A DNA stretch of 64,000 bases from a bacterium (lineage in GTDB: Bacteria; Babelota; Babeliae; Babelales; RVW-14), in assembly GCA_016699045.1 (NCBI GenBank), contig CP064957.1, forward strand, positions 799,613 to 863,612, read 5' to 3'. A program made the position numbers and the translations under genes. Numbering within the stretch: the first letter of the stretch is position 1; each line of letters opens with the position of its first letter. Under the pieces are notes generated by a model that made no database searches, was not told where the DNA came from, and saw only the letters and a list, made by a program, of their open reading frames with translations. Positions 2,938-60,118 of this stretch are shown here, in pieces.

Positions 2938-3621
2938 ATGAGAGAAGAAAGGATTTGTGTGAACAAAAAATTTGTAGGATTATTTTTGGCAGCTCTTGCG
3001 TTTTCTACCAATGCTATGCCAATGGCGCCAGCAACATGCAAACTATTTGAGGCAGCTAAAAAGGGCGATGTTGTATTGGCAATAGAACTTATCAAACAAG
3101 ATGCCGATGTTAATGCTTTCAATGTCAATAATAAAACACTCCTTCATTTTGCTGCTCAAAATGGTTATGACGAGTTGACAGCATTGCTTTTAAAAAATGG
3201 TGCAGAAGTTAGTCCTGTCGATGTGTCAGGTTTTACGCCATTGCATTATGCTGCTTGCGAAGGCCATACCGAATGCGTTAGGGCGCTAACGGTAAAAAAA
3301 GCTGACGTTAATGCCATTGCCAACAATGGAGCTACACCGCTCAACCTTGCGATTACCGATGGTTATAAAGAGTGTGTAGAAATTTTACTTGCTGCGGGGG
3401 CAAATCCCATACTCGCTCCATGCGCAGGCACGTACAAATACCTTATGCCAGAAGAAATAGCACGCAAACGCGGTCATGAAGACATCGGAGATATTCTCCT
3501 CAAAGCGTGCGAGAAATGGGAAAAAGAAATCGAAGACACGTTGGACAAAGATTCTGAGGAAGAATTAAATGCAAGCATATGGACGGCATGCTTCAATTGT
3601 TGTGGCTGTAGTGTTCAATAA
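2938..3621 (+). CDS. ankyrin-repeat protein with N-terminal signal peptide and C-terminal Cys cluster/CaaX box
   Basis: Repeated TPLH(Y/F)AA..G....V..LL..GA(D/E)VN ankyrin units. N-terminal hydrophobic segment KKFVGLFLAALAFSTNA. C-terminus CFNCCGCSVQ. Confidence 0.85.
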   Translation: MREERICVNKKFVGLFLAALAFSTNAMPMAPATCKLFEAAKKGDVVLAIELIKQDADVNAFNVNNKTLLHFAAQNGYDELTALLLKNGAEVSPVDVSGFTPLHYAACEGHTECVRALTVKKADVNAIANNGATPLNLAITDGYKECVEILLAAGANPILAPCAGTYKYLMPEEIARKRGHEDIGDILLKACEKWEKEIEDTLDKDSEEELNASIWTACFNCCGCSVQ

Positions 3622-4259: not shown

Positions 4260-7130
4260 CTAGAACACTTCGCCAAGCGTTAAATACCAGGCATAAGCGC
4301 TATCGCCCGGCAATCGCGTTTTCCATTTCCAGCCGATATCAAAACGAATGGCGCCGATGGGTGTTTTGTAGCGCAGCCCACAACCAGAGCCAGGAAACCA
4401 GGTACCTGAGCCAGGAATACCGGATTGACTCAAAACGCCAACGTCTTGGAAAATAACCATGCCGAGTTTATTAATAATTGGAAAGCGTAATTCAAGATTG
4501 AGGTTGATCATCGAGCTCCCGCCTTGAATGGTGTATTCTTGCTGTATGACGCCATTTTCGTCAATAAACTCGCTCATGCCCAGTGGCGGCAACGCATCTT
4601 TTTCATAACCGCGGACCGAGTAAGGGCCGCCCAAATAAAAGCGTTCGATGGGCATAATCTGGTTAAATTTGCGTCTGAAAATATGACCAAAGCGTAATCG
4701 AAAGCTGCCGATAACGTCGTTGTGTAATGCTTTAAAATATGATTGCTCGGCCATTAAGCGTACCGAAAAACCGGCTGCAAGTTCAGGGACCATTAATTTC
4801 ATTGAAAGAAAACTAAACTGGCCTTTGGTGGTGTTAATGCGGTCATCGAGTGTATCGATAATTAAACTTGGTTCAAGGAAAAAATAGGGCAAGGTGCGAT
4901 CAATATAGTCCGGATCTAAGTTAAGGTTGCCGCGCACTCTGCTCGTACGCATCCACTCATTACCAACCGTAATACCCCAATAATAATTTTCGCGATATTC
5001 ATCGCTCAGGCCTGCCAAAAAGCCACTCTGTACCGCTTCGTATGCCGAGTCGCTTGAACCAACGGCGATGGGTTGTGTGTATTTGTTTGCGTAACCTTTG
5101 AGTTTGCCCATGACGGGAAATCCTAATAACGCTGGTTGTTGGTAATGTGCATCAAGTGTTCGCTCAAAGCGCGTAATTTCTGTATTAATGGTAAAATTGT
5201 CGGCACGATTGGTTGGATTTTTTATGACTAAGGATGCGCCTAATTTTGCTGTTGATTGTTTTTTAAACATAAAATTTTTGCTTGTTAAAAAATAGCCAGC
5301 GCGCAAACGCAATTCAATTGGTTCGTCGTCAACCAGTGTTATGATCAGCGGTTTTTTGCTTTTGGTATTTGATAAATGGTATGGCTGAATTTGTATTTGT
5401 TTAAAAATATCAAGGCTGCGTAATTTTTTACGCGTGAGTTCTAATTTTTCTTTATTCCACAATTCGCCCTCATGGCAACGTACTTCGCGCATGATGCGTT
5501 TAAATGGTAATTTGGTGGTGCCACGTAAATAAACTTTTCCAAAGCGTACGCGTGGTCCTGGTTCAATATTCCAGGTGGTAAAAACATCAATGCCATGTGG
5601 TGCAATTTTACTGGTCAAAATCGGGCTGACACGAGCGTACCAATAACTATGTTGTTGAAAATAATTGAGTAAATAGACTTTTTGTTCATGAAGCCAGTGA
5701 ATATTGAAAGGGACCAAATTATGCGTTGTACTTTTTTGTGGGTTGGTAAACACTGAGTGAATTGCTAAGTGCTGAAAATTTTTGAAATCAAAGCCATGAT
5801 AAAAATGCTGAGCACCTTTTTTGATGAGTACTAAAATAGCGTATGAATTGTTAGGTTTTTTAATGAAGCGCGTTTCAACAATTTCAAAATTCCAAAATCC
5901 TTGAGAAAAATAATAATCTTTTACGCTTGCAAGTGCTGCATCAAGGCGGCTTTGATCAAAGGTTTTTTTGCTCAGAAGCTCATCAAAAAAGTGTAAGCAC
6001 TGTTTTTCATGAGTCCCAGTCTCAACATTTTTACAAACGATTTTCTTAATGAAGGTTGGGTTTCCTTCTTGAATGGTAAAATCATAATCATATTTTTGTG
6101 TTGGAGTGTAAGAAATAGTCGTTCCCCAGTACCCTTTTTTGTAATATTCATGTAGCAGTTGTTCTGCAATAATATCGGGAGAAAAAAGCCATTCGGGCAA
6201 GTCAACGCCAATAATATCTTCCTTGATGGCATGATTTGAAAAAAGATGATTGCCACTAAAATTCAGAAGTTTTCTTTTTCCAAGATCAATAAAAAATACA
6301 ATATTAACCGTATAATTCCTATGATTAATCAGTCGCTTCATGCTTAAGTGGCTGTCGAAGTACCCTTTTTCTTGCAAATAGGTTCGTATCTTTTTTGCCT
6401 GTTTTTCGATGTGTTTTTTTTCGTAATTGGTATTTAATAAGTTTTTTTTAAAGCGCTTTAGTTTTTCTTTGAGTGTATTTGGTGCTTGTGTATCACTTTG
6501 TTCTTCATGAGTTTTAATATCAAAAGAGACGTCTTCAATGTGATAGTGTTTGCCTGGTTTTGTTTTAATGATAACCGTTATAGTTTTATTTTTTTTTTCA
6601 TACACAAATTCATCGGTTATGAGATGATCAAAAAAGCCTTCGGCTTTGAATTTTGCTTTAATGGCGCTAAGTGATTCTTCGTGTAAAGAGATATTAAAAA
6701 TGTTGCCCGGTTGCTGGATGTACAAATTGGTATACTCTTGTTGGCCAAAAAATACTCCTTTAAAGGTCATGCGCCTTAAAATCCAATTACTTTTGAGCGT
6801 GAATGTGAGATGTTGGCCATTTTCATAATCATGGCAATTGATATCAACTGATTGCAGGCGTTCTTTGCGAATAAGGCTTTTAAACGCCTGATTAACTTGT
6901 TTGACAGAAATAAAGGTGTTGGGAACGAGTTCAACCAGATGATTAAATTCTTCTGGGCTAATCTCGATGTCTGACTGATATGAAATTTTTGTGACGTACA
7001 GCGTTGTGGTTTCTTCAGGATAGTATTCATGAAAATTGCCGCCATAACACTGTTTTACATGAGCGAATAGTGACGGCGCCAATGTGCTGGCAATAAAAAA
7101 ACAGATGATAAATAATAAGCGCTTGAGCAC
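4260..7130 (-). CDS. large Omp85-family outer-membrane protein (BamA/TamA-like paralog, 956 aa)
   Basis: Signal peptide, a long POTRA-like N-terminal region, the barrel motif ERFYLGGPYSVRGYE, and a C-terminal aromatic residue (...LTLGEVF). Confidence 0.75.
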   Translation of the reverse strand: MLKRLLFIICFFIASTLAPSLFAHVKQCYGGNFHEYYPEETTTLYVTKISYQSDIEISPEEFNHLVELVPNTFISVKQVNQAFKSLIRKERLQSVDINCHDYENGQHLTFTLKSNWILRRMTFKGVFFGQQEYTNLYIQQPGNIFNISLHEESLSAIKAKFKAEGFFDHLITDEFVYEKKNKTITVIIKTKPGKHYHIEDVSFDIKTHEEQSDTQAPNTLKEKLKRFKKNLLNTNYEKKHIEKQAKKIRTYLQEKGYFDSHLSMKRLINHRNYTVNIVFFIDLGKRKLLNFSGNHLFSNHAIKEDIIGVDLPEWLFSPDIIAEQLLHEYYKKGYWGTTISYTPTQKYDYDFTIQEGNPTFIKKIVCKNVETGTHEKQCLHFFDELLSKKTFDQSRLDAALASVKDYYFSQGFWNFEIVETRFIKKPNNSYAILVLIKKGAQHFYHGFDFKNFQHLAIHSVFTNPQKSTTHNLVPFNIHWLHEQKVYLLNYFQQHSYWYARVSPILTSKIAPHGIDVFTTWNIEPGPRVRFGKVYLRGTTKLPFKRIMREVRCHEGELWNKEKLELTRKKLRSLDIFKQIQIQPYHLSNTKSKKPLIITLVDDEPIELRLRAGYFLTSKNFMFKKQSTAKLGASLVIKNPTNRADNFTINTEITRFERTLDAHYQQPALLGFPVMGKLKGYANKYTQPIAVGSSDSAYEAVQSGFLAGLSDEYRENYYWGITVGNEWMRTSRVRGNLNLDPDYIDRTLPYFFLEPSLIIDTLDDRINTTKGQFSFLSMKLMVPELAAGFSVRLMAEQSYFKALHNDVIGSFRLRFGHIFRRKFNQIMPIERFYLGGPYSVRGYEKDALPPLGMSEFIDENGVIQQEYTIQGGSSMINLNLELRFPIINKLGMVIFQDVGVLSQSGIPGSGTWFPGSGCGLRYKTPIGAIRFDIGWKWKTRLPGDSAYAWYLTLGEVF

Positions 7131-7295
7131 GGAACGTCCTGTTTTTGATCAATAAAGTTTCCTAAGTATAACTTTACTATTTTTGTGAAAATTTGTATTG
7201 TCCCAGGAGATTTCTTGGGATAAAGTGGTTTTTTGGGGTTGCCAAAAAAGATGAAAATTTTTATGAGAAAAGTGGAGGAGGTCAATAGTATAGAT

Positions 7296-7580
7296 TTAAT
7301 CACCAATGATTCTGAAAACGCTTCTAAAATCCTTTTCTTTTATCATTGGTTCTACTTGGACTTCATCTACTTTGGATTCCGAAGTGCCTTTGTACAAAGC
7401 ATCAATAAACTCATCAAGTTTTTCAGCGACGCCAGATGCTAAGATGATAACGCTTTGCTTGTCCTCTGCATTTTGCACGGTTCCTTCAATATCATACCGT
7501 TGAGCATTTTTGCGAACATATTCGCGATACGATGCCATTTGGACATTGCCAACGACTTTTATCTTAATACATTGCCTCAT
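7296..7580 (-). CDS. acylphosphatase
   Basis: 94 aa. IKVVGNVQMASYREYVRKNAQRYDIEGTVQN fits the acylphosphatase signature V.G.VQGV.FR....A...G..G.V.N. Confidence 0.65.
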   Translation of the reverse strand: MRQCIKIKVVGNVQMASYREYVRKNAQRYDIEGTVQNAEDKQSVIILASGVAEKLDEFIDALYKGTSESKVDEVQVEPMIKEKDFRSVFRIIGD

Positions 7581-7741
7581 AGGAATTTCCCTTTCTCACT
7601 TTTTGCCTCCTCGCGAGAATCATGCGTAATAGTATCAGACCGATTTTTGAAAAGTCAAAAAAAAAGTATAATTTTTTTTAAACTAAGTGAAAAAAATTAT
7701 TACAAAAAATGGTGGTATGTTTCTTAATAGAAGTTATTTTC

Positions 7742-8887
7742 TTAATTCAATATTTGGCGATAAAGTGCCATATGTTGAGCAAGCATGGCGGGAACGCCAA
7801 AGTCAGTTAATGAATCTTGATGATTACTTAAACGTTGATATAGTGCCTTATTGTTGGCTATTATGGCGATCATTTTGCCTAATTGTTGCCAATTTCCGGG
7901 TTCAATTAAATAGCCATTAATGTCATGTTGAATAACTTCATTGATTCCACCAACATTATAAGCAACTACAGGAATTTTGCTTAAACGTGCTTCAATAATA
8001 CTACATGGTAAGCCTTCCCATAGCGAACTGAGCGCGAAAACGTCCCACGAAGTGAGCCATGGCCTGATATCGTGTTGCCAACCAAGAAGATGTACCGAAT
8101 CGTGCATGTTGTTGCGTTTAATCCATTCTTCTAGTTCCGTGCGTAATATGCCGTCGCCAATTATTTCTAATTCAAGTGTTTGATGAGTAGTTAATGTGGT
8201 GGCAAGCTGAAATGCTTTGAGTAAATCGAGAAGATTTTTTTGAGGTTTGAAGCATGACACCGTGCCAATACGAAACGGCTTCATGCGGTTGAGGCAGCGA
8301 GCTGGTAGATAAAATTTTTCATATTCAACGGCAGCCCTAATAATCGAACTTTTACGTGCAAAGTCTGGCAAAAGCTTACATCCTTCTGTGTGATCTTTTG
8401 TTGAAACGCAAACAAAGTGGGTGGTGATTAATGTGGTTATCCATTCAAATGCGTAAATTAAAAGCCAGCGCAGGCGCGGTTGATAATCATTAAAACCAAA
8501 ACCATGAATCGTGTGAACGCGTGTTTTAATGCCTGCAAAAAATGCAGCCCAGCGACCAATAATGCCCGCCTTGGTACTATGTGTGTGCACGACAATAGCG
8601 GGGTATTTTTTTTTTAAGGTACGCAAAATGCGTACAATATTTCTAAAATTTTTGATTTCATTAAGCAATGATTTGAGGCGTGCTTCGTTTTTAAATGAAT
8701 CAAGAAGAAATACTTGATCAAATTGTTTTGCATGCGTTACAAGTGGTCCTTGGTTGCCCGAGATGAGGCTTGTTGAAAAATCAGTATCATTGATTCCTGA
8801 AACAAGAGAAAGGCAAACTTTTTGTGCTCCGCCAAGCTCAAGTTTTGTGACAATGTAAACCACGTGGAGGTTTTTAGTCTTCTTCAT
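7742..8887 (-). CDS. glycosyltransferase family 4 (GT-B fold)
   Basis: N-terminus VVYIVTKLELGGAQKV. C-terminal EGLPCSIIEARLSKIPVVAYNVGGINEV is the typical GT4 E-x7-E region. Confidence 0.7.
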   Translation of the reverse strand: MKKTKNLHVVYIVTKLELGGAQKVCLSLVSGINDTDFSTSLISGNQGPLVTHAKQFDQVFLLDSFKNEARLKSLLNEIKNFRNIVRILRTLKKKYPAIVVHTHSTKAGIIGRWAAFFAGIKTRVHTIHGFGFNDYQPRLRWLLIYAFEWITTLITTHFVCVSTKDHTEGCKLLPDFARKSSIIRAAVEYEKFYLPARCLNRMKPFRIGTVSCFKPQKNLLDLLKAFQLATTLTTHQTLELEIIGDGILRTELEEWIKRNNMHDSVHLLGWQHDIRPWLTSWDVFALSSLWEGLPCSIIEARLSKIPVVAYNVGGINEVIQHDINGYLIEPGNWQQLGKMIAIIANNKALYQRLSNHQDSLTDFGVPAMLAQHMALYRQILN

Positions 8888-8907: not shown

Positions 8908-9879
8908 TTAGCTGCTTATTTTTAAGATCAGTAAAAATGACACGATCATGGCATAAATAACTGATGATTCAATAAATGTGCTGGTCAGCAAGGTGAGCTT
9001 GATCATCAAGGGATAGCTGTTTGGCTCTTGAGCAATTTGTTCACAACTCTTTGATGCTGAAAGGCCAATGCCAGCTCCGGTGCCCAGAGCTCCAAGTCCC
9101 AAGGTAACTGCGGCTGTTAAAATAACAGGTCCTTGTGGCAAAAACGTAGTGCCCAGCGTTGGGACATAAAACAGAAACATGAGTGCAAGGAGCAAGCAAA
9201 AAATTATAGGTGTTTCAATAAATGCCTGCCCAAATAGCGCGAAAGGAAAAATTTTGTTGTAGGCATTTTTGTTAACGCTGACGGCTGTACAGGCCGCTTG
9301 GCAAAAAAGTGCTTGCCCGATTGAAGGCCCAATGCTGGCAAGGCCGATGACTAAGCCCGCGCCTAAATTTTTAACACCATCAATAACGACCATATTGTCG
9401 TTGATGGTTGTTTTGATAAGTAATGAAATAATAAAAGAAAAGAGAACAGGGGCTTCAATAATTGATTGACATAACAACATGAGCGTTATAATTTTTTGAG
9501 CAAAAAAAGGTTGGCGGCCAATTCCTTGCGTGGCAGCACTTACTACAAAACTTGAAGCAATACTGGTTGAAAGAGCGGCCAAACCAATGGCTAGTCCAAT
9601 GCCGAGTTCTGATAAGCTAAGTTCTAATGTTATTTCTTTTGGGGCGCCTAGTAGCATCAAAAGTGACATAACAAGTGCAATCACAATGCCGCTTTCAATG
9701 AGCGCAAGGCCGATAAGCATTGCTTTAAACGTGTTGTCTCGGCCGAGTTGTTGGCGTTCCATTGCTTGTAAGGCGTTCATGCCTGCCAAGCCTTGTCCCA
9801 ATCCACCGCCAATAGTTGCAAGGCCTAGTGCCAAAATAGCCGAAAAATAATGAAGAAAATTAGCAAACATCGTGATCAC
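8908..9879 (-). CDS. atpE: F-type ATPase c subunit, four hairpins fused in one 323-aa polypeptide
   Basis: Four tandem units of about 80 aa, each with a Gly-rich helix 1 (e.g. GLATIGGGLGQGLAG). Loops resemble RQP (ERQQ, GRQPF, NKNAY, QEPNS). Helix 2 carries a Glu in each unit (LIESG, IIEAP, FIETP, FIESS). The gene lies directly downstream of atpB; an alternative ATG is at 9870. Confidence 0.8.
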   Translation of the reverse strand: MITMFANFLHYFSAILALGLATIGGGLGQGLAGMNALQAMERQQLGRDNTFKAMLIGLALIESGIVIALVMSLLMLLGAPKEITLELSLSELGIGLAIGLAALSTSIASSFVVSAATQGIGRQPFFAQKIITLMLLCQSIIEAPVLFSFIISLLIKTTINDNMVVIDGVKNLGAGLVIGLASIGPSIGQALFCQAACTAVSVNKNAYNKIFPFALFGQAFIETPIIFCLLLALMFLFYVPTLGTTFLPQGPVILTAAVTLGLGALGTGAGIGLSASKSCEQIAQEPNSYPLMIKLTLLTSTFIESSVIYAMIVSFLLILKISS

Positions 9880-10726
9880 TTTCTTCTGATACTAAAGGTT
9901 GTGGTTCATCGTGGTCTGTTACGCCCATCGATAAGTAAGTTGCTGTTAGCATAGTTAAAACGAATGCTTGGATTAGTCCTTCAAAAAAGCCAAAAAACAT
10001 TTGAATGAAAACCAAGGCAAAAAGCATGATATGAAATATTTTGTGCAGGCGTGCAAAATAAGTAATGTGTTTGAGTACTGGAAATCGATATGTAATGATG
10101 CTTAACAAGATCATTACGAGCGTGAGCCCAAGAAAATGAAATTTAAGGGGGCCTCCTACAAATTGCATAATCATGCTAAAAATAATGCTGCCACCCAAAA
10201 TATTACCAAAAAGTCGAAAAGACATTGAGGCAATTTTGGCAAGCTCACCAATAACATTGATTGGTGCTAAAAAGAAAATTGGTTGTATAAATTCTTTTAA
10301 GTAATGTTTCATGCCTTTAAATTTAATTTTGTACCATTGTACGTAGGTAAAACTGGTAAGCCCCAAAGCGACGGTTGTATTTAGATCATTCGTTGATTCA
10401 TCCAAAAAAGGGATAAGGCTGGTGGCGCTACAAAAAAGAGTAAATAGAAAAAGTGACGTAATAAAAGCAAAGTGGTTATAAATCAATTTACCAAATGATT
10501 CTTTGGTTAAATCAATAAAAAAGCCAATGACCGTTTCGTAGGCAACCGAGATGATGGTTGGGTTACGTTTTAAGAGATATTTGCCCGCTATTGCTAAAAC
10601 AAAGAGCATCCCCATGGCAAACCAGGTGTACATTAATGTGTCTAAATGTAGGTGCCAAAAGGGGCCATTGAGACCAAATACCTTGAAAGGTGCAATTTCT
10701 TTATACTTAAAAAGATTAATATTCAT
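9860..10726 (-). CDS. atpB: F-type ATPase subunit a
   Basis: Polytopic membrane protein with the subunit-a signature SFRLFGNILGGSII, which includes the essential Arg. The ATG at 10726 overlaps the stop of the upstream small ORF (ATGA). Confidence 0.85.
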   Translation of the reverse strand: MNINLFKYKEIAPFKVFGLNGPFWHLHLDTLMYTWFAMGMLFVLAIAGKYLLKRNPTIISVAYETVIGFFIDLTKESFGKLIYNHFAFITSLFLFTLFCSATSLIPFLDESTNDLNTTVALGLTSFTYVQWYKIKFKGMKHYLKEFIQPIFFLAPINVIGELAKIASMSFRLFGNILGGSIIFSMIMQFVGGPLKFHFLGLTLVMILLSIITYRFPVLKHITYFARLHKIFHIMLFALVFIQMFFGFFEGLIQAFVLTMLTATYLSMGVTDHDEPQPLVSEESDHDVC

Positions 10727-11013
10727 GAATGCGCCTGTGTTTTTTTGAGCGTATACGACCAAAAGCTAATACCAAAACCAACAAGGAAGAGCGGCAAGGT
10801 AACATGTAGCCAAAAATACAATAATGATACGGTGATGATAAGTATAAAAAACCTTCCAACAAACCATAACAAAGGTTGTACAAAAAAGCGAGAAGGTGGA
10901 GTTTCAGGGCTTGTTGAAAATGCCTTTTGCGTTTGAGTAACAAAAAAATAGGCATACGCAAAGCCTACCAAGAGACCAGATACGATTGAGATGAATAGCG
11001 TTGTTGTTGTCAT
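10723..11013 (-). CDS. small membrane protein, AtpI/AtpQ-like (putative)
   Basis: About 96 aa from the ATG at 11013, with 3 predicted TM helices. It is translationally coupled to atpB by an ATGA overlap. The call rests on position, not on sequence motifs. Confidence 0.45.
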   Translation of the reverse strand: MTTTTLFISIVSGLLVGFAYAYFFVTQTQKAFSTSPETPPSRFFVQPLLWFVGRFFILIITVSLLYFWLHVTLPLFLVGFGISFWSYTLKKTQAHS

Positions 11014-11241
11014 AAATGCACTCCTGTGATAGCAATTTGCCCTAATTATAAAGGCTAGTACGAAATGGCGACATGTGCAAGTAAAAGAATACATTCTGGG
11101 GCCATCTTAATAAAAATATTGCTTCTGCTGCTCAAATTTGATTACTATGAGAAAAATGCCCTTCGAGACGCCAAGTGTTGCTGGTCTCCTCAGGGTGGAC
11201 GGGAAGAGGGGTAAAGGGAATAATACTATTGAGGGGGAATA

Positions 11242-11826
11242 ATGAAAAAAGGCATGCTTTTCTTACGTGCATTTTTTGCGGTAGTGGTTGTTGTTGGCGG
11301 AGTGTGCTCATTAAACGCTTCTTCTTCGCTTGCGCGTAATAAAATTCCACGGGATATTGAGGGTCAAAAAGTTCAACCAGGAGCAACATTTACGGTGATT
11401 CAGTTATGGAATTTGATTAATACCAGATTAAAAAAAAAGGCTGCCCATTTTCTGGTGCCTGGTGGCAAAAATAACAAAGTTTTTACCGATAGTGAATGTA
11501 ATTGGACAACGGGCGGAGCCAATATTCATGGTTCTTATAGTGCCGAGCGACTTGGTTTTTCTGCCGATTGGATGCACAAAAATGGAGATCAACAAGTTAC
11601 CTTGCATGATGACCCAGATTTGATAACACTTTTGGAAAAAGAAGGCCGCATTGCAAGTGCTAATCAAGGTGATAAGTACCAGAAAATTTTGCTTTATTTT
11701 ACCGTAAATATGAATGGTGTTTCGTACCGTTTGTACCTCAACGATCCTTATCCTTCAAAAGTTGTCAATATTGGCAAAAAAGTTGTCAATGAAGTTAAAA
11801 ATATATTGAATGCTTGGGAAGTCTAG
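11242..11826 (+). CDS. hypothetical secreted protein
   Basis: RBS GAGGGGG lies before the ATG. Signal peptide MKKGMLFLRAFFAVVVVVGGVCSLNA. No recognisable domain. Confidence 0.55.
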   Translation: MKKGMLFLRAFFAVVVVVGGVCSLNASSSLARNKIPRDIEGQKVQPGATFTVIQLWNLINTRLKKKAAHFLVPGGKNNKVFTDSECNWTTGGANIHGSYSAERLGFSADWMHKNGDQQVTLHDDPDLITLLEKEGRIASANQGDKYQKILLYFTVNMNGVSYRLYLNDPYPSKVVNIGKKVVNEVKNILNAWEV

Positions 11827-11888: not shown

Positions 11889-13118
11889 TTAAACGTTGTT
11901 GAGAAGTAACATTTCTTTCAAAACGCTGTCTGGGTTGAGCGAAATAGAATCGATTCCTTGATCAACTAAAAACTGTGCAAACTCTGGATAATCTGAAGGA
12001 GCTTGGCCACAAATCCCAATTTTCTTGTTAGCTTTTTTAGCGCCTTGAATTGCCATAGTCAGCATCATTTTGACCGCGGCATTGCGCTCATCAAACAGTG
12101 AGGCAACAAGGCCTGAGTCGCGATCAACGCCTAGTGTCATTTGTGTTAAATCGTTTGATCCAATCGAAAAGCCATCAAAAAGTTTTGCAAATTCATCGAT
12201 CAGTAAAACGTTTGAAGGAATTTCAACCATCATATAAACTTCAAGGCCATTCTGTCCTTGGATTAAATCGTGTCGATTCATTTCTTGTAGTGCCTTGTGC
12301 GCTTCCTCAATCGTACGTACAAATGGCAACATCAGCTTAACGTTGGTCAGGCCCATTTCAAGCCGTATTTTTTTCATAGCAGCACATTCCAGCGCAAAGC
12401 CTTCCTGGTATTTTTCATGATAATAACGTGAAGCGCCACGAAATCCCAACATTGGGTTTTCTTCTTCTGGTTCAAAGTCTTTTCCAGCAATCAATTTGCG
12501 GTACTCATTGCTTTTAAAATCTGACATTCTGATAATAACTGGTTTTGGGTAAAAAGCAGCAGCAATGGTGCCCGCTTCTTGTGCTAGTTTGTCGATAAAA
12601 TATTGTTTTTTATCAGTGTAACCAGCGGTCAATTGCGCAATGAGTGTACGATCTTTTTCGTCAGAAATTTTGTCGGGATGAATAAGTGCCATCGGATGGA
12701 TTTGCAGCGCGTTATTAATAATAAATTCCAAGCGAGCCAAGCCCACGCCGGCATTTGGAATATTAACCAGGTTAAATACTTCGTCAGGGTTGCCTACGTT
12801 CATCATCAAACTTACTGGCGGATTTTTAAGATGGCTTGTTTCTATTCGTTTAATTTCGAAAGGAAAGTGGCCTTGGTAGACAGACCCAACTTCGCCATTG
12901 GCACAATCAAGCGTAATTTCTTGGCCGGTTGTAATTTTGGCAGTTGCATCTTCGGCGCCTACAATGGCGGGGATGCCCAGTTCGCGACTAATGATAGCGG
13001 CATGACACGTTCTGCCTCCACGATTAGTGACAATGCCAGCAGCAATTTTCATGATTGGTTCCCAATCAGGGTCGGTCATGTCGGTAACCAAAATATTGCC
13101 CGGCTGCACTTCGTGCAT
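11889..13118 (-). CDS. ppsA: phosphoenolpyruvate synthase, C-terminal fragment (phosphohistidine swivel + PEP-utilising TIM barrel)
   Basis: VTDMTDPDWEPIMKIAAGIVTNRGGRTCHAAIISRELGIPAIVG and IGSNDLTQ motifs. It is contiguous with the upstream fragment once a 1-nt frame shift is allowed. Confidence 0.9.
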   Translation of the reverse strand: MHEVQPGNILVTDMTDPDWEPIMKIAAGIVTNRGGRTCHAAIISRELGIPAIVGAEDATAKITTGQEITLDCANGEVGSVYQGHFPFEIKRIETSHLKNPPVSLMMNVGNPDEVFNLVNIPNAGVGLARLEFIINNALQIHPMALIHPDKISDEKDRTLIAQLTAGYTDKKQYFIDKLAQEAGTIAAAFYPKPVIIRMSDFKSNEYRKLIAGKDFEPEEENPMLGFRGASRYYHEKYQEGFALECAAMKKIRLEMGLTNVKLMLPFVRTIEEAHKALQEMNRHDLIQGQNGLEVYMMVEIPSNVLLIDEFAKLFDGFSIGSNDLTQMTLGVDRDSGLVASLFDERNAAVKMMLTMAIQGAKKANKKIGICGQAPSDYPEFAQFLVDQGIDSISLNPDSVLKEMLLLNNV

Positions 13119-13129
13119 TGCTTTAATAT

Positions 13130-14278
13130 TTAAATAACGCGTGCTTTACCCACCACAATTTTGCGCCCCACGCTTTTGCCGTGCACAATAATGTTTTCTT
13201 TAGAAATCGTTGATTTATCCAGTACATATTCTTCAAAAAAAGATTGCTGTTGTTTTTGAGAATAGACCGTTTCTGGGCGCGCTTGAACAATGTACAGTTT
13301 TCCGTCAAGGCCGTCTTTTGCCCACTCGATATCCATGGGTGACCACATGCCGCGCTCTTGAGAATAATGATCTTCAATGATAGCTGCTTGGCGCGCCAAG
13401 AAAAGAATTTCATCATCATTCAAACAAAATTGTACGCGGTCTTTGGTTTCAACTTCAACTTTTTTTGTTGCTTGGCCATGGTCGGCATAGATAAGTTTTT
13501 GTTGTTTGCTGCCAATGCGTTTTTTTAGAATTGGTTTAAAACCTTGCGCAAGTGTTGGTTTATGGACATAAAATTCATCGGGATTGATGCTGCCTTGTAC
13601 CACCATTTCGCCAAGGCCATATGAGCCGCTGATGTAAATAACATCTCTAAAGCCGCTCTCAGTATCAAGGGTAAAAATAACACCCGCACTTGCCAAATCT
13701 GAGCGTATCATTTTTTGTACACCAATTGAAAGAGCAACGTCCATGTGATCAAAATTATGGTCAATGCGGTACGACAACGCGCGGTCGGTAAATAACGATG
13801 CGTAAGCATTGCTGCATGCCGTCATGAGTTCTTGCTCGCTGCGGACATTCAAATAAGTTTCTTGCTGGCCAGCAAAAGAGGTTGCTGGCAAGTCTTCTGC
13901 GGTGGCAGATGAACGTACGGCAACATCACAGGGTGCGGGGTAGCGCTTGGTTAGGTTTTGATAAGCTTCTTTAATGGCTTGGGTAAGATCGGCAGGAATT
14001 GGTGCTTGCGCAATGAGCGTTCTAATTTGTTGGCCAAGGGCTACAAAAGCTTCAAGATTATTTTTATCAAGTTGTGCGAGTAATTTTTGTAATGGTTCTT
14101 CAAGATTGTTGGCTGATAAAAAATGACGATATGCTTGGGCAGTGATAGCAAACCCGCCGGGTACCATGACGCCTTTGGTGGTAAGATTTTGGATCATTTC
14201 GCCAAGCGAAGCGTTTTTCCCGCCAACACTATTGATGTCTTTTATACTAATCTCTTCGAATAATTTTATAAATTTCAT
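13130..14278 (-). CDS. ppsA: phosphoenolpyruvate synthase, N-terminal fragment (ATP-grasp/nucleotide-binding domain)
   Basis: VGGKNASLGEM, VAVRSSATAEDLP and IEWAKDG are PpsA N-terminal signatures. The fragment stops 12 nt before the next fragment. Confidence 0.9.
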   Translation of the reverse strand: MKFIKLFEEISIKDINSVGGKNASLGEMIQNLTTKGVMVPGGFAITAQAYRHFLSANNLEEPLQKLLAQLDKNNLEAFVALGQQIRTLIAQAPIPADLTQAIKEAYQNLTKRYPAPCDVAVRSSATAEDLPATSFAGQQETYLNVRSEQELMTACSNAYASLFTDRALSYRIDHNFDHMDVALSIGVQKMIRSDLASAGVIFTLDTESGFRDVIYISGSYGLGEMVVQGSINPDEFYVHKPTLAQGFKPILKKRIGSKQQKLIYADHGQATKKVEVETKDRVQFCLNDDEILFLARQAAIIEDHYSQERGMWSPMDIEWAKDGLDGKLYIVQARPETVYSQKQQQSFFEEYVLDKSTISKENIIVHGKSVGRKIVVGKARVI

Positions 14279-45496: not shown

Positions 45497-45997
45497 CTAT
45501 TCTGTTTCTATTTTCTGTGATGAAGAGCTAATTTCGTTTGGCGATATAGCACCGCTTTGAATTAATGCTTCAATACAGGCAGAATATTCGCCTCGTATTG
45601 CTAGCTGCAGTGGTGTCATGCCGTCTTGAGCCGTGATATTTGGGTTAGCATGTTGGCTGAGTAAATAATTTATTGCAGGTGCGTTGTTGTTATTTGCAGC
45701 ATAATGAAGCGCGGTCCAGCCATTCGTGTCTATCAAGTTAACATCGGCTCCACCTGCCACCAGCGCTTTCACAATCTCTAAACAGCTGCGTTTTGCTGCT
45801 GCGTGATGCAAAGGTGCCCATTCTGCTTCTGACAACGTATTAACATTGACCTTTCTACTTTGTATAAGTTCTAAAGCAGCCGGAATGCGATTTTCACTAA
45901 TAAAATACATGAGTGTTTCAGTTGTTCCAGCGTGCAGCGTTGAGCTGGTAGTTATATGACAAACGAGAAACAATAAACCTATAAATTTCTTGACCAT
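45497..45997 (-). CDS. ankyrin-repeat protein with signal peptide
   Basis: WAPLHHAAAKRSCLEIVKALVAGGADVN, GWTALHYAANNNNAPAINYLLSQHANPN and GMTPLQLA repeats. N-terminus MVKKFIGLLFLVCHITTSSTLHA. Confidence 0.85.
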   Translation of the reverse strand: MVKKFIGLLFLVCHITTSSTLHAGTTETLMYFISENRIPAALELIQSRKVNVNTLSEAEWAPLHHAAAKRSCLEIVKALVAGGADVNLIDTNGWTALHYAANNNNAPAINYLLSQHANPNITAQDGMTPLQLAIRGEYSACIEALIQSGAISPNEISSSSQKIETE

Positions 45998-46035
45998 GAT
46001 ATACCTTTGCATTTTTAATGATAAAGTGTGCGTTG

Positions 46036-54199: not shown

Positions 54200-55486
54200 A
54201 TGAAAGAACAAGGTTCAATTTCATTTCTATCTGCAGTATTAATGAGTATTAACATTATTGTGGGTGTTGGTATTTATTTTGGTCCGCAAATTATGACAAC
54301 CCGAGCTGGCTCTATGAGTTTTCTGGGCTGGCCGCTTGTTGCTTTGATGCTTTTTCCTGTTATTTGGGGCGTTGCCTTGGCTGCGCGTATGTTTCCTGGT
54401 GGTGGCAGTTTCTACAATTATTGTACTCAAGGTATTAATAAAACCTTTGGCGTTATTGCTATTTGGGCATATCTGTGGGGATTTATTGGTGTAGCGGCTA
54501 CGCAAACGTTGGCGTTTCGAGATCTTTTGATTGCTCAATTTCCTACTCCATTTTGGCAAGAGCATAGTTTGCTATTTAATGCTGGATTTATCTTTATTTT
54601 GGCTTTGCTTAACTTGGTTTCAGTTGAACTTATTAGCAAAATACAAAGTTTTGTAACGATTATCAAAATCCTTCCGATGGTCGCGGTTATATTTATTTTG
54701 CCTTTTTATTGGGACAGTTTGTATGTCTTTAATGTTGCTGATATGAGTAATTTGGGACTAGCTATCCCAGTTGCTATTTTTGGTTATTCTGGATTTGAAA
54801 GTTGCAGCAATATCAGTCACTTGCTCAAAGGTGGTTCGCAAAAAGCGTTTGGTGTTATTTTGACTGCGTTCTTTATTGTTGTGTCTTTGTATGCAATTTT
54901 TCATTTGGGCGTTTTGCATATCATGGGTGCTGCGCAGTTAGCAGCTCAAGGCGTTCCGTCTATGGTTAATTTCTTGGGTTTCCAATCAGCCGATGTTGTT
55001 GCCATCATGCAACGTGGCTTGACGGTAATTTTGCTCTTAAGTTTTGCGAATGCAATTTATGGCGTTACCCTGTCCAATATTACGAATTTTTTCAATATGG
55101 CACAGGAAAAGCTTTTTCCTTATCCAAAAAAAATGACAATGGTTAATGGCTACGATCGTCCTGTGTGCGTTATTGCGATTATAGCTTTGATAACTTTTGG
55201 TTTCATAACGCTTATTCCAAAGACTGAAATTTTGTTAGCGCTTTCAACGCTGGGCGTTTTAACTGCTTATACTTTGACGTTGGTGGCAGTTGCTCGTGTG
55301 CAGCTTAAACAAAAGGATTTTGGGAAATTATTTTTAACCGTTCTTGGTTTTGGTTCATGTGGCGCACTTGGTTATTTTTCTTGGGTTTCAATTGAAGGCA
55401 GCAATATGCTGCGGCTTTGTTATGCAAGTCCGTTGCTTGTTGGTGTCGCTCTCGGAACTTTTTTATATTTAAGCAAGAAAAAATAA
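54200..55486 (+). CDS. APC-family amino acid permease (428 aa)
   Basis: 12 TM helices. SFLSAVLMSINIIVGVGIYFGP...GGGSFYNY. A tandem paralog follows. Confidence 0.75.
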   Translation: MKEQGSISFLSAVLMSINIIVGVGIYFGPQIMTTRAGSMSFLGWPLVALMLFPVIWGVALAARMFPGGGSFYNYCTQGINKTFGVIAIWAYLWGFIGVAATQTLAFRDLLIAQFPTPFWQEHSLLFNAGFIFILALLNLVSVELISKIQSFVTIIKILPMVAVIFILPFYWDSLYVFNVADMSNLGLAIPVAIFGYSGFESCSNISHLLKGGSQKAFGVILTAFFIVVSLYAIFHLGVLHIMGAAQLAAQGVPSMVNFLGFQSADVVAIMQRGLTVILLLSFANAIYGVTLSNITNFFNMAQEKLFPYPKKMTMVNGYDRPVCVIAIIALITFGFITLIPKTEILLALSTLGVLTAYTLTLVAVARVQLKQKDFGKLFLTVLGFGSCGALGYFSWVSIEGSNMLRLCYASPLLVGVALGTFLYLSKKK

Positions 55487-55490
55487 TTAT

Positions 55491-56777
55491 ATGATGAAAA
55501 AACAAACGATCCCTTTTTGGATAGCGGTTATTATTAATATTAACATTGTGATTGGTGCTGCATTTTTTTTAGGTGCGCAATCAATTAGCATGAAAAGTGG
55601 ATTTTTGAGTCCATTTGCATGGCTGTTTTGTGGCTTTTTATTAATGCCTCTTGTTGCCGTATTTGCGTGGTTTGCCAAGCGCTATCCTGAAGCTGGCGGT
55701 TTGTATGTTTATAGTCAAAAATCACTGGGAAGCTTTTGGGGCTTTTTGAGCGGGTGGGGTTACTTTGTTGGTACTACGGCTGGCAATGCGGCCGTGATCC
55801 ACGCATTTTCAAGCTACTTACAAAATGTGCCGCCTGTGCATCAGATGCTAGTACCATGTGGACTTCTTGGTTTAAAATTTGATTTGTTCCTTGTATTATT
55901 TTTTACGATGTTGAATATGATGAACGTTCAATTTATGGAACGTGCGCACGTCTTTTTTGTTATCATGAAAACGATTCCGATGTTGGTACTGGTAGTTGGC
56001 GCTTTGTGTGTGGGCACAACGGCGCCAATTGTTGCGCAATCGTGGAATTTCACTAATTTTTTTGGAACGATTCCGATGGTCTTTTTTGCATATGTTGGTT
56101 TTGAGGCCTGCTGCGCAGTTGCCGATAAAATTGGCGATAATGAGAAAAAAGCATCGGCAGTGATTTGGTCGTCGTTTGGGATTATCATGTTGGTTTACGT
56201 TGTTCTGCAATATTGCGCATTGCGTGTGCAGGCAGGTGCTGATGTTAATCCGTTCTTGCATGCTATCAGCCAATTAACGAGCAATCAGGGTATGGTTGAT
56301 GCGCTCAGCACGGTTGTGTATGCAACCATTATGTTGTCATTTTTGGGCGGCTTTTATGGCATGTATTTTTACAACAGTTGGAATTTGTATGCCATTGCGC
56401 AGAACAAAAATATCATTGGCGGGGCATTCTTAACCAAATTAACCAAAAACCAAATTCCATGGGCTTGTTTGATGGTGCAGTTTTCTCTGTTGAGCATCTT
56501 TTTGTTGTTAACGACAGCAGACAGCTATTTGGTGGTGATTGGTGATTTTGGTGTTACCATCGGCTACTTGCTGACAACCATTGCATTTTTGGTAGCGAGT
56601 AAGAATAAAATTGTTACTTTGGCGGCCTTGGGCAGTTGTTCGTTTCTGTTATACTTGTGCTCTAGAACTTTGGTCGAAGCCGGCATGTATAATCTTATTC
56701 CGTTATTAATTGTCGTTGGTATTGGCATTGTTGCGTATCAAGGCAAACAGTTTTTGAATCAACCGTCTCGCTCTTAG
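55491..56777 (+). CDS. APC-family amino acid permease (428 aa)
   Basis: 12 TM helices. PFWIAVIININIVIGAAFFLGA...AGGLYVYS. Same length as, and collinear with, the upstream paralog. Confidence 0.75.
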   Translation: MMKKQTIPFWIAVIININIVIGAAFFLGAQSISMKSGFLSPFAWLFCGFLLMPLVAVFAWFAKRYPEAGGLYVYSQKSLGSFWGFLSGWGYFVGTTAGNAAVIHAFSSYLQNVPPVHQMLVPCGLLGLKFDLFLVLFFTMLNMMNVQFMERAHVFFVIMKTIPMLVLVVGALCVGTTAPIVAQSWNFTNFFGTIPMVFFAYVGFEACCAVADKIGDNEKKASAVIWSSFGIIMLVYVVLQYCALRVQAGADVNPFLHAISQLTSNQGMVDALSTVVYATIMLSFLGGFYGMYFYNSWNLYAIAQNKNIIGGAFLTKLTKNQIPWACLMVQFSLLSIFLLLTTADSYLVVIGDFGVTIGYLLTTIAFLVASKNKIVTLAALGSCSFLLYLCSRTLVEAGMYNLIPLLIVVGIGIVAYQGKQFLNQPSRS

Positions 56778-59590: not shown

Positions 59591-60118
59591 TTAATCGAGG
59601 TTTAGTTCTTGTGCTAACTGAGCTAGTTCTTGGTCTAGTGCTGTTGTTAACAAATCGATAATGGTCTTAAATTTTTTTGCCATTTCTTGATTATATTTCG
59701 ACGGTACTCGTATCTCATCTCTGCCATTTTCTGTTTTACAAAGTACGGTTTGATAAAGCATATAGCTTTCGTAGCGTTCTCGAGCAATCATGAGCGGCGT
59801 TCTACCAGAGCCATCAACTTCATTAAGCTGAGTATCTGATTCTATGAGAAGCTTAACAATATTAGCATTGCCTGAAAAACAAGCGAGATGAATTGGTTGT
59901 GATTGTGAGATATTTTTTGCGTAGATATCATCTTTGTTTAGAAATAACAACATCTCGACCTCGCCTTCATTTGGGCGTGCGCATGCAAGATGTAGTGGAG
60001 TATTGCGGTAAAGATCTTGAGGTGCTTTTGCAGGTTTTTTTGCGGTTGCTTGTAGTGATCCTTGTGAATAGGTTGCAAAAAAAGCTGCCATAAAAAAATA
60101 ACCATATTTTTTGATCAT
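59591..60118 (-). CDS. ankyrin-repeat protein with signal peptide
   Basis: NTPLHLACARPNEGEVEMLL, SQPIHLACFSGNANIVKLLIESDTQLN and GRTPLMIA repeats. N-terminus MIKKYGYFFMAAFFATYSQGSLQA. Confidence 0.85.
   Translation of the reverse strand: MIKKYGYFFMAAFFATYSQGSLQATAKKPAKAPQDLYRNTPLHLACARPNEGEVEMLLFLNKDDIYAKNISQSQPIHLACFSGNANIVKLLIESDTQLNEVDGSGRTPLMIARERYESYMLYQTVLCKTENGRDEIRVPSKYNQEMAKKFKTIIDLLTTALDQELAQLAQELNLD

Follow-up and report, generated by a model that had tools for sequence, protein, structure and literature searches.

A conserved four-hairpin subunit c of the F type in Dependentiae and its probable role in an F1Fo ATPase with scattered genes

The window, which is the whole 64-kb stretch of DNA analyzed here, comes from a parasitic bacterium of the Dependentiae (TM6) and contains three adjoining genes for an AtpI-like small membrane protein, subunit a, and an unusually long subunit c (c4) but no other recognizable part of an ATP synthase. 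Such a locus raises the question of what kind of machine its products serve, and in particular whether they act without F1, belong to another class of rotary ATPase, or form the membrane part of an F1Fo enzyme whose remaining genes lie elsewhere. The reading favored here, at a probability of about 0.78, is the last of these: subunit a, c4, and the AtpI-like protein would belong to an F1Fo ATPase with dispersed atp genes, a ring that holds hairpins in multiples of four, and a function as an ion pump. Within that reading, we infer the ring size, the ion species, and the direction of operation.

Gene layout and the identity of the Fo proteins

At their full extent, the three open reading frames on the minus strand span 10723..11094, 9860..10762, and 8908..9879, and the starts adopted in Table 1 lie within them. 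The AtpI-like protein most likely begins at Met28, its frame being open back to 11094, and the real start of atpB is the ATG at 10726. The atpE product has 323 residues from the GTG at 9879 or 320 from the ATG at 9870, the latter being the length of a homolog (P0001) that is 97% identical to it. The ATGA overlap between the AtpI-like frame and atpB that an earlier note on this DNA had described is present in the sequence, and atpB and atpE overlap as well. The same note placed a glycosyltransferase gene 20 nt past the c4 stop on the same strand and a divergent hypothetical gene on the other side, and both are found there. Scans for promoters and terminators gave matches that were no commoner than in shuffled sequence.

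Table 1. Features of the a-c4 locus and of the four hairpins of c4
Feature	Coordinates	Strand	Residues	Remarks
Divergent hypothetical gene	11242..11826			Beside the AtpI-like/a/c4 locus
AtpI-like small membrane protein	10723..11013	-	96 aa from Met28 (=11013)	Stop overlaps atpB start
atpB, F-type Fo subunit a	9860..10726	-	288 aa	Arg171 in FRLFGN; PF00119
atpE, fused four-hairpin subunit c (c4)	8908..9870	-		Overlaps atpB 3' end; PF00137
Hairpin 1 of c4	9646..9858	-	8-78	Helix 1 GGGLGQGLAG; loop R42-Q43-Q44; E62 (codon 9694-9696)
Hairpin 2 of c4	9406..9618	-	88-158	Loop R122-Q123-P124-FFAQK; E142 (codon 9454-9456)
Hairpin 3 of c4	9166..9378	-	168-238	Loop S-V-N-K-N-A-Y-N-K, in the family G-x-N-[KR]-x-A-Y; E222 (codon 9214-9216)
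Hairpin 4 of c4	8920..9132	-	250-320	Loop I-A-Q-E-P-N-S-Y; E304 in FIESSVIY (codon 8968-8970)
GT4 glycosyltransferase	7742..8887	-		Pfam Glycos_transf_1 and Glyco_transf_4; conserved neighbor, outside the ATPase

The atpB product matches the Pfam family ATP-synt_A (PF00119) with 115 bits against a cut-off of 33.9 (E 5.9e-33), covering positions 2 to 217 of the 217-position model. It retains, as had been claimed, the essential Arg, which is R171 and lies in a motif, [FLV]RLFGN, that is kept in 53 of 53 related loci. The profile match and an essential Arg in the penultimate helix identify the protein as an F-type subunit a, and its gene has a dN/dS of 0.10. The AtpI-like protein matches ATP-synt_I (PF03899) with 20.2 bits, under the threshold of 25.1 (E 0.0019), and weak matches came from 5 of its 13 orthologs. 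Its position is that of AtpI/UncI, since 13 of the 14 loci examined have a frame of 90 to 119 aa that reaches or runs into the start of atpB, and the orthologs from 13 related loci share invariant G13, G17, Y20, F80, F84, and W85. Its gene has a dN/dS of 0.20 (against the related locus L003), and the protein is a probable assembly factor.

The c4 protein matches ATP-synt_C (PF00137) in four separate stretches (E 2.3e-41; 140.3 bits against a cut-off of 24). All four hairpins align without gaps with subunit c from Escherichia coli, Ilyobacter tartaricus, Bacillus PS3, and spinach, and their glutamates E62, E142, E222, and E304, all encoded by GAA codons, align with D61 of E. coli and E65 of I. 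tartaricus. The earlier description of four subunit c hairpins that all have a Glu in helix 2 (in LIESG, IIEAP, FIETP, and FIESS) is thus borne out by the alignment and by Pfam. Each hairpin has the hallmark of F-type subunit c, namely a Gly/Ala-rich helix 1 and a carboxylate in the middle of helix 2, and the protein as a whole departs from the single hairpin of about 70 to 90 aa that is usual for the type. An AF2 model of c4 (pLDDT 96.7; pTM 0.93) has eight transmembrane helices.

The hairpins differ in their loops. The RQP loop, which contacts F1 gamma/epsilon in canonical enzymes, is found in hairpin 2, where over 95% of the family keeps it. The corresponding loop of hairpin 1 is RQQ in the c4 of the window and RQP in 81 of 122 close homologs, and hairpins 3 and 4 have other conserved motifs in its place.

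Multihairpin proteolipids are typical of V/A-type enzymes, and the NCBIfam search gave weak matches to models of V-type K and of alternate F1F0 c and a subunits, as would be expected if the locus belonged to a V/A-type or N-type ATPase instead of a housekeeping F-type enzyme. The V-type K models, however, scored only 19 to 65 bits against cut-offs of 101 to 211, and the N-ATPase models TIGR03322 and TIGR03306 scored 81.9 against 130.85 and 82.9 against 302.1, respectively. The cut-offs of two F-type models were exceeded (PRK06876, 94.3 against 71; TIGR01260, 57.8 against 43.95), with the other equivalog models under their cut-offs. The best relatives of c4 in the PDB are F-type, with c1 of Acetobacterium woodii followed by single-hairpin F-type subunits c, and V-type proteins are marginal (E 6.5e-4). 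The partner of c4 is an F-type subunit a and not V_ATPase_I, and the gamma subunit of these bacteria, discussed below, matches PF00231. Neither AtpQ/AtpR nor the N-type operon order (atpDCQRBEFAG) occurs at the locus, and the AtpR model matches the AtpI-like frame in 1 of 13 orthologs with an E value of 0.2. Membership in a V/A-type or N-type ATPase is therefore highly improbable.

A fusion of this kind could also arise from four tandem c genes merged by an assembly or sequencing error, or it could belong to a decaying gene. Errors or decay do exist in the window, where ppsA contains one probable frameshift, near positions 13118 to 13135. Among assemblies from NCBI, JGI, ENA, and Logan, however, the fusion is common to more than 200 clusters of Dependentiae/Babeliales proteins: 184 full-length homologs have 310 to 329 aa, and 222 clusters (50% identity, E<=1e-30) have the c4 architecture, come from independent assemblies, and belong to Dependentiae/Babeliales wherever the source is named. 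Hundreds of independent assemblies thus have the same open frame. Each hairpin can be told from the others by a signature, the linkers and loops show position-by-position conservation, and c4 has a dN/dS of 0.054 against a close relative. No repeat at the DNA level was found among the four hairpins, so that nothing of this kind is present to cause misjoins. Conservation has already refuted the reading of c4 as an artifact or pseudogene, and with it the possibility of merged tandem genes that the earlier note had raised against itself.

The comparison of the four repeats at the protein and DNA levels, which that note had proposed, also bears on their age. Orthologous hairpins are 44 to 58% identical and paralogous hairpins only 21 to 31%, which indicates from sequence that the quadruplication is ancient and predates the divergence of the sampled Dependentiae. 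The paralog identities contain no signal pairing hairpin 1 with 3 and hairpin 2 with 4, as a double hairpin duplicated again would leave. In our reading, c4 is a covalent tetramer of hairpins that became nonequivalent after an ancient quadruplication, with RQP in hairpin 2, a degenerate copy in hairpin 1, and separate loops in hairpins 3 and 4.

Location of the F1 and stator genes

The absence of atpF, atpH, atpA, atpG, atpD, and atpC from the locus had been noted before, and it extends to the window: tblastn with E. coli AtpA, AtpD, AtpG, AtpF, AtpH, and AtpC detected none of the genes for alpha, beta, gamma, b, delta, and epsilon in the 64 kb, and Pfam found no b, delta, or epsilon among 20 mid-sized open reading frames. 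The neighborhood is a conserved one, ppsA ... GT4-acylphosphatase-bamA. The adjacency of a and c4 and the flanking synteny are kept in about 47 loci, with atpB directly 5' of c4 in every related locus that has upstream room (43 of about 47). Of the 42 related loci that extend far enough, 38 have the GT4 gene directly 3' of c4, with the genes for acylphosphatase and BamA coming next.

These data could describe an autonomous device, as the earlier note implied, in which F1 has no part and in which a and c4 serve as an ion channel or as a rotor that ions drive for some other purpose. None of the roughly 47 a-c4 loci has a gene for F1 or the stator within 10 kb, and the synteny is with cell envelope genes (GT4 and BamA). 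Against this, an F-type gamma subunit is conserved across the phylum. The atpG gene (PF00231) is always solitary, beside yacP/tsaE, with 112 matches in at least 80 Dependentiae species genomes, and the same tblastn queries run against about 100 Dependentiae loci matched only the atpG loci. Five genomes contain both c4 and atpG (the MAGs CAWEPS01, JAPLIS01, CAVXJH01, and CAWIZM01 and, in addition, JBAZSL01); the closest relative, JAIERW01, is not among them. On the 93-kb contig JBAZSL010000005.1, a c4 with all four glutamates and atpG are about 30 kb apart. The supplementary COG table of Babela massiliensis lists AtpA, AtpD, AtpG, AtpH, AtpF, and AtpC, a full F1 set with b, and the supplementary tables also include AtpB and a 320-aa "AtpE" with eight transmembrane helices. 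Columns 1 and 2 of the COG table were read as Babela and TM6SC1 from ankyrin counts, and this one table is the basis for alpha, beta, delta, epsilon, and b in Dependentiae. In addition, the RQP loop is kept in hairpin 2 and largely in hairpin 1, and the membrane potential would be lost through an Fo that is not coupled. An Fo-only device is accordingly very unlikely.

The phrase "isolated Fo module" in the earlier note, as worded there, is thus not supported, given the solitary atpG across the phylum, the five genomes with c4 and atpG, and the Babela table. As judged from gene content, the isolation of the a-c4 locus reflects a phylum-wide scattering of atp genes, not an absence of F1. The a and c4 subunits would then be the ion-translocating membrane pair of a genuine F1Fo ATPase in this Dependentiae/Babeliales bacterium, with F1 and stator genes that are probably present but scattered around the chromosome. 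Dispersed atp sets, with Fo and F1 genes outside one operon, are known from cyanobacteria, chloroplasts, some alphaproteobacteria, and Aquifex. Dependentiae differ from these in that even atpG stands alone, and the a-c4 pair has the envelope-gene setting described above.

Ring composition, ion sites, and direction of operation

If c4 units assemble into a ring by themselves, the hairpin number would be a multiple of four, an expectation of the earlier note that holds provided that the ring is homo-oligomeric, c4 being a real covalent four-hairpin unit. Three c4 units, giving 12 hairpins and matching the threefold symmetry of F1, appear most likely, with 8 or 16 hairpins also possible. The ring would escape this rule if c4 coassembled with an ordinary single-hairpin c encoded elsewhere. 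The closest solved relative of c4 is A. woodii c1, which occurs in such a mixed ring, and with dispersed atp genes a second atpE need not adjoin the first; the count of COG0636 in the Babela table is 2. That count is, however, explicable as two matches of a profile of about 160 aa on one 320-aa protein, and a search of the window and of 100 Dependentiae loci, which amount to about 1.2 Mb, turned up no further c-like open reading frame. In A. woodii, moreover, a single operon has the c genes side by side, but here c4 is the only c gene after atpB. A mixed rotor is therefore unlikely, and a ring built from c4 units remains the preferred reading.

The number of ion sites in such a ring varies by clade. 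Among 127 family representatives surveyed for carboxylates, 27 have four and 88 have three, usually with Gln in hairpin 2. The site in hairpin 1 is nearly uniform (E in 122 of 122 close homologs; E in 123 and D in 4 of the 127), that in hairpin 2 is Gln in 89 (about 70%) and Glu in 30, and that in hairpin 4 is D in 69 and E in 49. The commonest patterns, EQED (58), EEEE (22), and EQEE (20), split by clade. The claim that no carboxylate is lost therefore stands for the c4 of the window and its clade and fails for most of the family. By alignment, the Gln in hairpin 2 is the same kind of loss as that seen in V-type proteolipids. One turn of a 12-hairpin ring would translocate 12 ions in the EEEE clade, to which the window belongs, and 9 ions in the larger sister clade with Gln in hairpin 2, which corresponds to 4 and 3 ions per ATP, respectively.

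Ligands of the Na+-binding type (Q32-, S66-, T67-, and Y70-type) occur piecemeal in c4: Q, E, and S in hairpin 1 and E, S, S, and Y in hairpin 4, with EAP and ETP at this region of hairpins 2 and 3. A uniform Na+ site appears unlikely on these grounds. Because the ligand pattern differs among the four sites, the coupling ion is probably H+. Dependentiae have no electron transport chain, they possess ATP/ADP translocases, and their ATP synthase has been inferred to run in reverse (PMC4776705; PMC6561590). Given the uptake of ATP from the host and the absence of a respiratory chain, the enzyme would most probably be an ATP-driven ion pump that energizes the membrane.

Comparison with other fused subunits c

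To our knowledge, the bacterial F-type rings described so far are built from single hairpins, the only natural exception being A. woodii c1, and we know of c fusions otherwise only from V/A-type enzymes or engineered constructs. A description of a four-hairpin F-type subunit c was not found in the literature, and the c4 fusion, conserved across Dependentiae, is apparently undescribed. The A. woodii F1Fo c1 (PDB 4bem chain J) resembles c4 in being a multihairpin c in a bacterial F-type enzyme and is its best match both in sequence (E 2.5e-14, to hairpins 3 and 4 of c4) and in structure (Foldseek E 9.8e-5; 31% identity). It has two hairpins and one ion site, and one copy of it shares a mixed ring with nine single-hairpin c2/c3 subunits (PMC9171764). 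In contrast, c4 has four hairpins with four glutamates, its gene does not adjoin one for a single-hairpin c, and throughout the phylum no c gene besides the fusion is seen at the locus.

Engineered fusions of subunit c from E. coli and Bacillus PS3 (c2, c3, c4, and c10) were reportedly made by Jones and Fillingame in 1998, Jiang et al. in 2001, and Mitome et al. in 2004. Like c4, they have short periplasmic linkers and constrain the ring to multiples of the fused unit; unlike c4, which is natural and ancient and whose diverged hairpins have different loops, they are laboratory-made arrays of identical repeats. Entries for the Jiang and Mitome fusions appear in the table and reference list of a review (PMC7594442).

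Hairpin multiplication and fusion are shared with the V/A-type proteolipids, and the site loss of those proteins is paralleled in the larger Dependentiae clade. V-type and archaeal A-type proteolipids, for example that of Methanopyrus kandleri, have 2, 3, or 13 hairpins, the described types as a whole having 1, 2, 3, or 13, and the loss of carboxylates in V-type enzymes is thought to lower the ion/ATP ratio (PMC9171764). Four hairpins lie outside that series, and c4 differs further in that its hairpins and its partners (a and gamma) are F-type and in that every ion site is retained in the clade of the window. The earlier note stated that carboxylates are usually lost from the fused proteolipids known so far, which holds only roughly; archaeal 1-, 2-, 3-, and 13-hairpin forms are known (PMC9171764).

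A phylum-wide c4 would imply rings of 8, 12, or 16 hairpins, possibly a symmetry-matched c12, in which hairpins are specialized and only one or two of every four keep the loop that contacts F1. The numbers of c hairpins and of ion sites set the ion/ATP ratio of every rotary ATPase, and here sister clades have four or three ion sites per c4 in organisms that live on imported ATP and in which the enzyme is probably a pump. It may be, although we hold this only tentatively and consider it rather less probable than its negation, that Dependentiae independently replayed in an F-type enzyme the gear change of fusing hairpins and then deleting ion sites, to which V-type pumps are believed to owe their origin, with a c12 ring, 4 or 3 ions per ATP by clade, and both states preserved in one phylum of parasites that import ATP. 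The link between fusion, site loss, and the gearing of pumps, long discussed, would become testable in an F-type background, and if the c12 reading is true, the EEEE and the EQED/EQEE clades would offer a natural comparison of ion/ATP tuning in a dedicated pump. For metabolic reconstructions that are based on annotation, the finding is a correction: what is called the "ATP synthase" in Dependentiae departs from the typical enzyme, and its genes lie scattered.

A four-hairpin F-type subunit c and its locus

The minus strand of the window carries three translationally coupled genes, which encode an AtpI-like protein where the c-ring assembly factor would be expected, subunit a, and a fused four-hairpin subunit c (c4). 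The 320 aa read from the ATG of c4 match the length of P0001, a database protein that is 97% identical. Pfam ATP-synt_C matched c4 in four separate stretches (E = 2.3e-41) and ATP-synt_A matched the atpB product across the entire model (E = 5.9e-33); the ATP-synt_I match of the AtpI-like open reading frame (ORF) was below threshold. Subunit a contains FRLFGN, which carries the essential Arg. All four hairpins gave gap-free alignments with the c subunits of E. coli, I. tartaricus, Bacillus PS3, and spinach, and E62, E142, E222, and E304 of c4 occupied the D61/E65 column. The locus, with its neighbors, is thus as the earlier note described it from the sequence, in every detail.

AlphaFold2, run with the family alignment, gave a very confident model of eight helices in four hairpins (pLDDT 96.7, pTM 0.93). 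The best PDB matches by structure and sequence were the double-hairpin F-type c1 of A. woodii, from which c4 differs in having four hairpins, and then single-hairpin F-type c subunits, whereas V-type proteolipids matched less well; this comparison found no solved chain with four hairpins. Membership of the locus in the V-type or N-type ATPases fails on both profile and partner tests: c4 passed the cutoffs of two F-type c models in NCBIfam, and no protein of the locus reached those of the V-type K and N-ATPase models.

Features of the window
Feature	Position	Strand	Remarks
Ankyrin-repeat protein, small	2938..3621	+	
GT4, acylphosphatase, bamA	4260..8887	minus	GT4 glycosyltransferase starts 20 nt downstream of c4
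atpE (c4)	8908..9870/9879	minus	320 aa from ATG, 323 aa from upstream GTG; overlaps atpB end
atpB	9860..10726	minus	288 aa; ATG overlaps stop of preceding AtpI-like ORF (ATGA)
AtpI-like ORF	10723..11094	minus	Conserved part from Met28 (11013), 96 aa
Divergent hypothetical gene	11242..11826	+	194 aa; upstream of atp genes; hydrophobic N terminus
ppsA	11889..14278	minus	Two ORFs in different frames; junction near 13118-13135
Ankyrin-repeat protein, small	45497..46012	minus	
Multi-pass membrane proteins, adjacent	54200..55486 and 55491..56777	+	428 aa each
Ankyrin-repeat protein, small	59591..60118	minus	

About 47 related loci keep the order ppsA ... AtpI-like, atpB, atpE (c4), GT4, acylphosphatase, bamA. 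In most Dependentiae loci the last three lie downstream of atpE and share its strand (GT4 in 38/42, acylphosphatase in 28/39, and bamA in 23/36 of those with room). The 194-aa divergent gene matched nothing in Pfam or NCBIfam scans, and its position is kept in several relatives. The ppsA gene (PEP synthase/pyruvate phosphate dikinase family) is continuous in six other loci and in L003, the locus of the closest genome relative (Babeliales MAG JAIERW01, syntenic, ~78% nucleotide identity); at the junction the window is one base short in an A/T-rich run (ATTTAAATATTAAAG versus ATTAAAAATATCAAAG), and the split is either a true frameshift or a sequencing error. The two 428-aa proteins are distantly paralogous (24% identical, with E values from about 1e-24 to 1e-30) and look like putative amino-acid-permease-type transporters. 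The three ankyrin proteins are consistent with an intracellular, protist-associated member of the Dependentiae; the relative Babela massiliensis has 126 ankyrin COG hits (PMC4378268).

Age of the fusion and retention of carboxylates

A database search with c4 matched 184 proteins, whose named sources were Candidatus Dependentiae/Babeliales (TM6); the best 120 were all 310 to 329 aa long, with full-length identities of 45 to 97%. With a cutoff of E <= 1e-30, an exhaustive profile search recovered 222 clusters formed at 50% identity, almost all with lengths of 308 to 329 aa. Equivalent hairpins are 44 to 58% identical across species and nonequivalent hairpins inside one protein only 21 to 31%, and c4 DNA compared with itself contained no meaningful internal repeats, indicating that the quadruplication is older than the diversification of the lineage sampled. 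Values of dN/dS against L003 were 0.054 for c4, 0.10 for subunit a, and 0.20 for the AtpI-like protein. An assembly artefact or pseudogene was excluded by the low c4 value, the lack of repeats, and a full-length frame conserved in many proteins; these comparisons indicate a gene that is real, old, and under selection. Within the family the conserved loops differ by hairpin: R-Q-(P) in hairpin 1, a very conserved R-Q-P-F-F-A-Q-K in hairpin 2, G-x-N-[KR]-x-A-Y in hairpin 3, and A-x-[DNE]-P-x-x-Y in hairpin 4.

The proposal that no carboxylate had been lost holds for the window protein and its clade but not for the family as a whole. In close homologues hairpin 1 always has Glu, which is missing from hairpins 2 and 3 in ~10% of sequences each. 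Of 127 full-length representatives of the whole family, 88 carry three carboxylates and 27 carry four; the commonest patterns over hairpins 1 to 4 are EQED (58), EEEE (22), EQEE (20), and EEED (5). Full retention is a clade trait, since the four-carboxylate proteins, the window included, form one contiguous group on a distance tree; a larger group that includes Babela has Gln at hairpin 2, and a small outlying group has only one or two carboxylates. The family thus resembles V-type proteolipids and A. woodii c1, in which fusion was followed by site loss (PMC9171764).

The profile search also returned multi-hairpin proteolipids from metagenomes (P0286, P0322, P0385, P0375, P0354, P0274, and P0311). 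They include an unusually Trp-rich chain of 968 aa (~12 hairpins, apparently with Glu in each), two chains that look archaeal, of 1139 aa (length equivalent to ~14 hairpins) and 631 aa (~8), and a further chain of 524 aa; among five-hairpin forms, one has Glu throughout and two have Glu in hairpin 1 only and Gln in the other four.

Dispersed atp genes in the Dependentiae

The earlier note had taken the locus for an isolated Fo module. Genes for alpha, beta, gamma, b, delta, and epsilon are indeed absent from the window and from 18 c4 loci (+/-10 kb). Solitary atpG genes are uncommon in bacteria. In the Dependentiae loci examined, atpG is invariably a lone gene next to yacP and tsaE, with no second atp gene within 6 to 10 kb in 82 loci. 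These loci came from Babela AtpG, which found 665 homologues and, in a genome scan, 112 matches. Of these, the 80 best loci were kept, almost all of them with titles naming Dependentiae/Babeliales/TM6 or an unclassified source. The adjacent yacP (NYN)-tsaE pair is divergently oriented and conserved (L019, L020, and ~80 more, L021-L100). Four MAGs contain both c4 and atpG (CAWEPS01, JAPLIS01, CAVXJH01, and CAWIZM01), and a 93-kb contig, JBAZSL010000005.1, carries them about 30 kb apart, its c4 being of the four-Glu type seen in the window.

According to published work, an ATP synthase is encoded in every TM6 genome and presumably works in reverse (PMC4776705; PMC6561590). The Babela annotation (PMC4378268) has a 320-aa AtpE with eight TM segments, homologous to the window c4 along its full length (33% identity), and a lone AtpG among unrelated genes about 190 kb away. 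Its COG table has a single entry for each of AtpA, D, G, H, F, C, and B, the first column being taken as Babela because of its ankyrin count of 126. Together with solitary atpG and its co-occurrence with c4, this table indicates that atp genes are scattered in the phylum. The a-c4 pair is, on this genomic evidence, probably one piece of a complete F1Fo set, whose alpha and beta genes appear in the Babela table. The isolated module was thus not borne out, which lowers the interest below that first framing. A function of a and c4 as Fo only is unlikely, as gamma is conserved and the RQP loop is kept in hairpin 2 and largely in hairpin 1.

Predicted rotor and coupling

The four Glu residues of c4 are predicted to be protonatable or ion binding, the F-type subunit a has the stator Arg, and relatives have an F-type gamma. 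A rotor built of c4 units would contain 8, 12, or 16 hairpins. Twelve (three c4) is favored; this lies inside the bacterial range of 9 to 17 (PMC7594442), and the usual F1 symmetry mismatch would vanish. A ring mixing c4 with a second, single-hairpin c would fit the COG0636 count of 2 in the Babela table and the scattering of atp genes, but is improbable, given that the window and related loci totaling about 1.2 Mb show no single-hairpin c gene. With a 12-hairpin ring of c4, the ratio would be 4 ions per ATP for the window enzyme and 3 for enzymes with Gln at hairpin 2. ATP-driven pumping is the likely direction, because these organisms do not respire and take up ATP from outside; a smaller ion/ATP ratio would permit a higher membrane potential. 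H+ is the more likely coupling ion, because Na+-type ligands are patchy over the four hairpins (Q, E, S in hairpin 1; E, S, S, Y in hairpin 4; EAP and ETP at this region of hairpins 2 and 3).

Reviews describe c subunits of 1, 2, 3, or 13 hairpins (PMC9171764), and full-text searches on the ATP synthase, c-ring, proteolipid, or subunit c of Dependentiae, Babelota, or TM6, or on a four-hairpin c, found no description of c4; such sequences are already public, under plain database names such as "ATP synthase F0 subunit C" and "hypothetical protein." For the bioenergetics of rotary ATPases, the interest of the c4 subunit is moderate to high.
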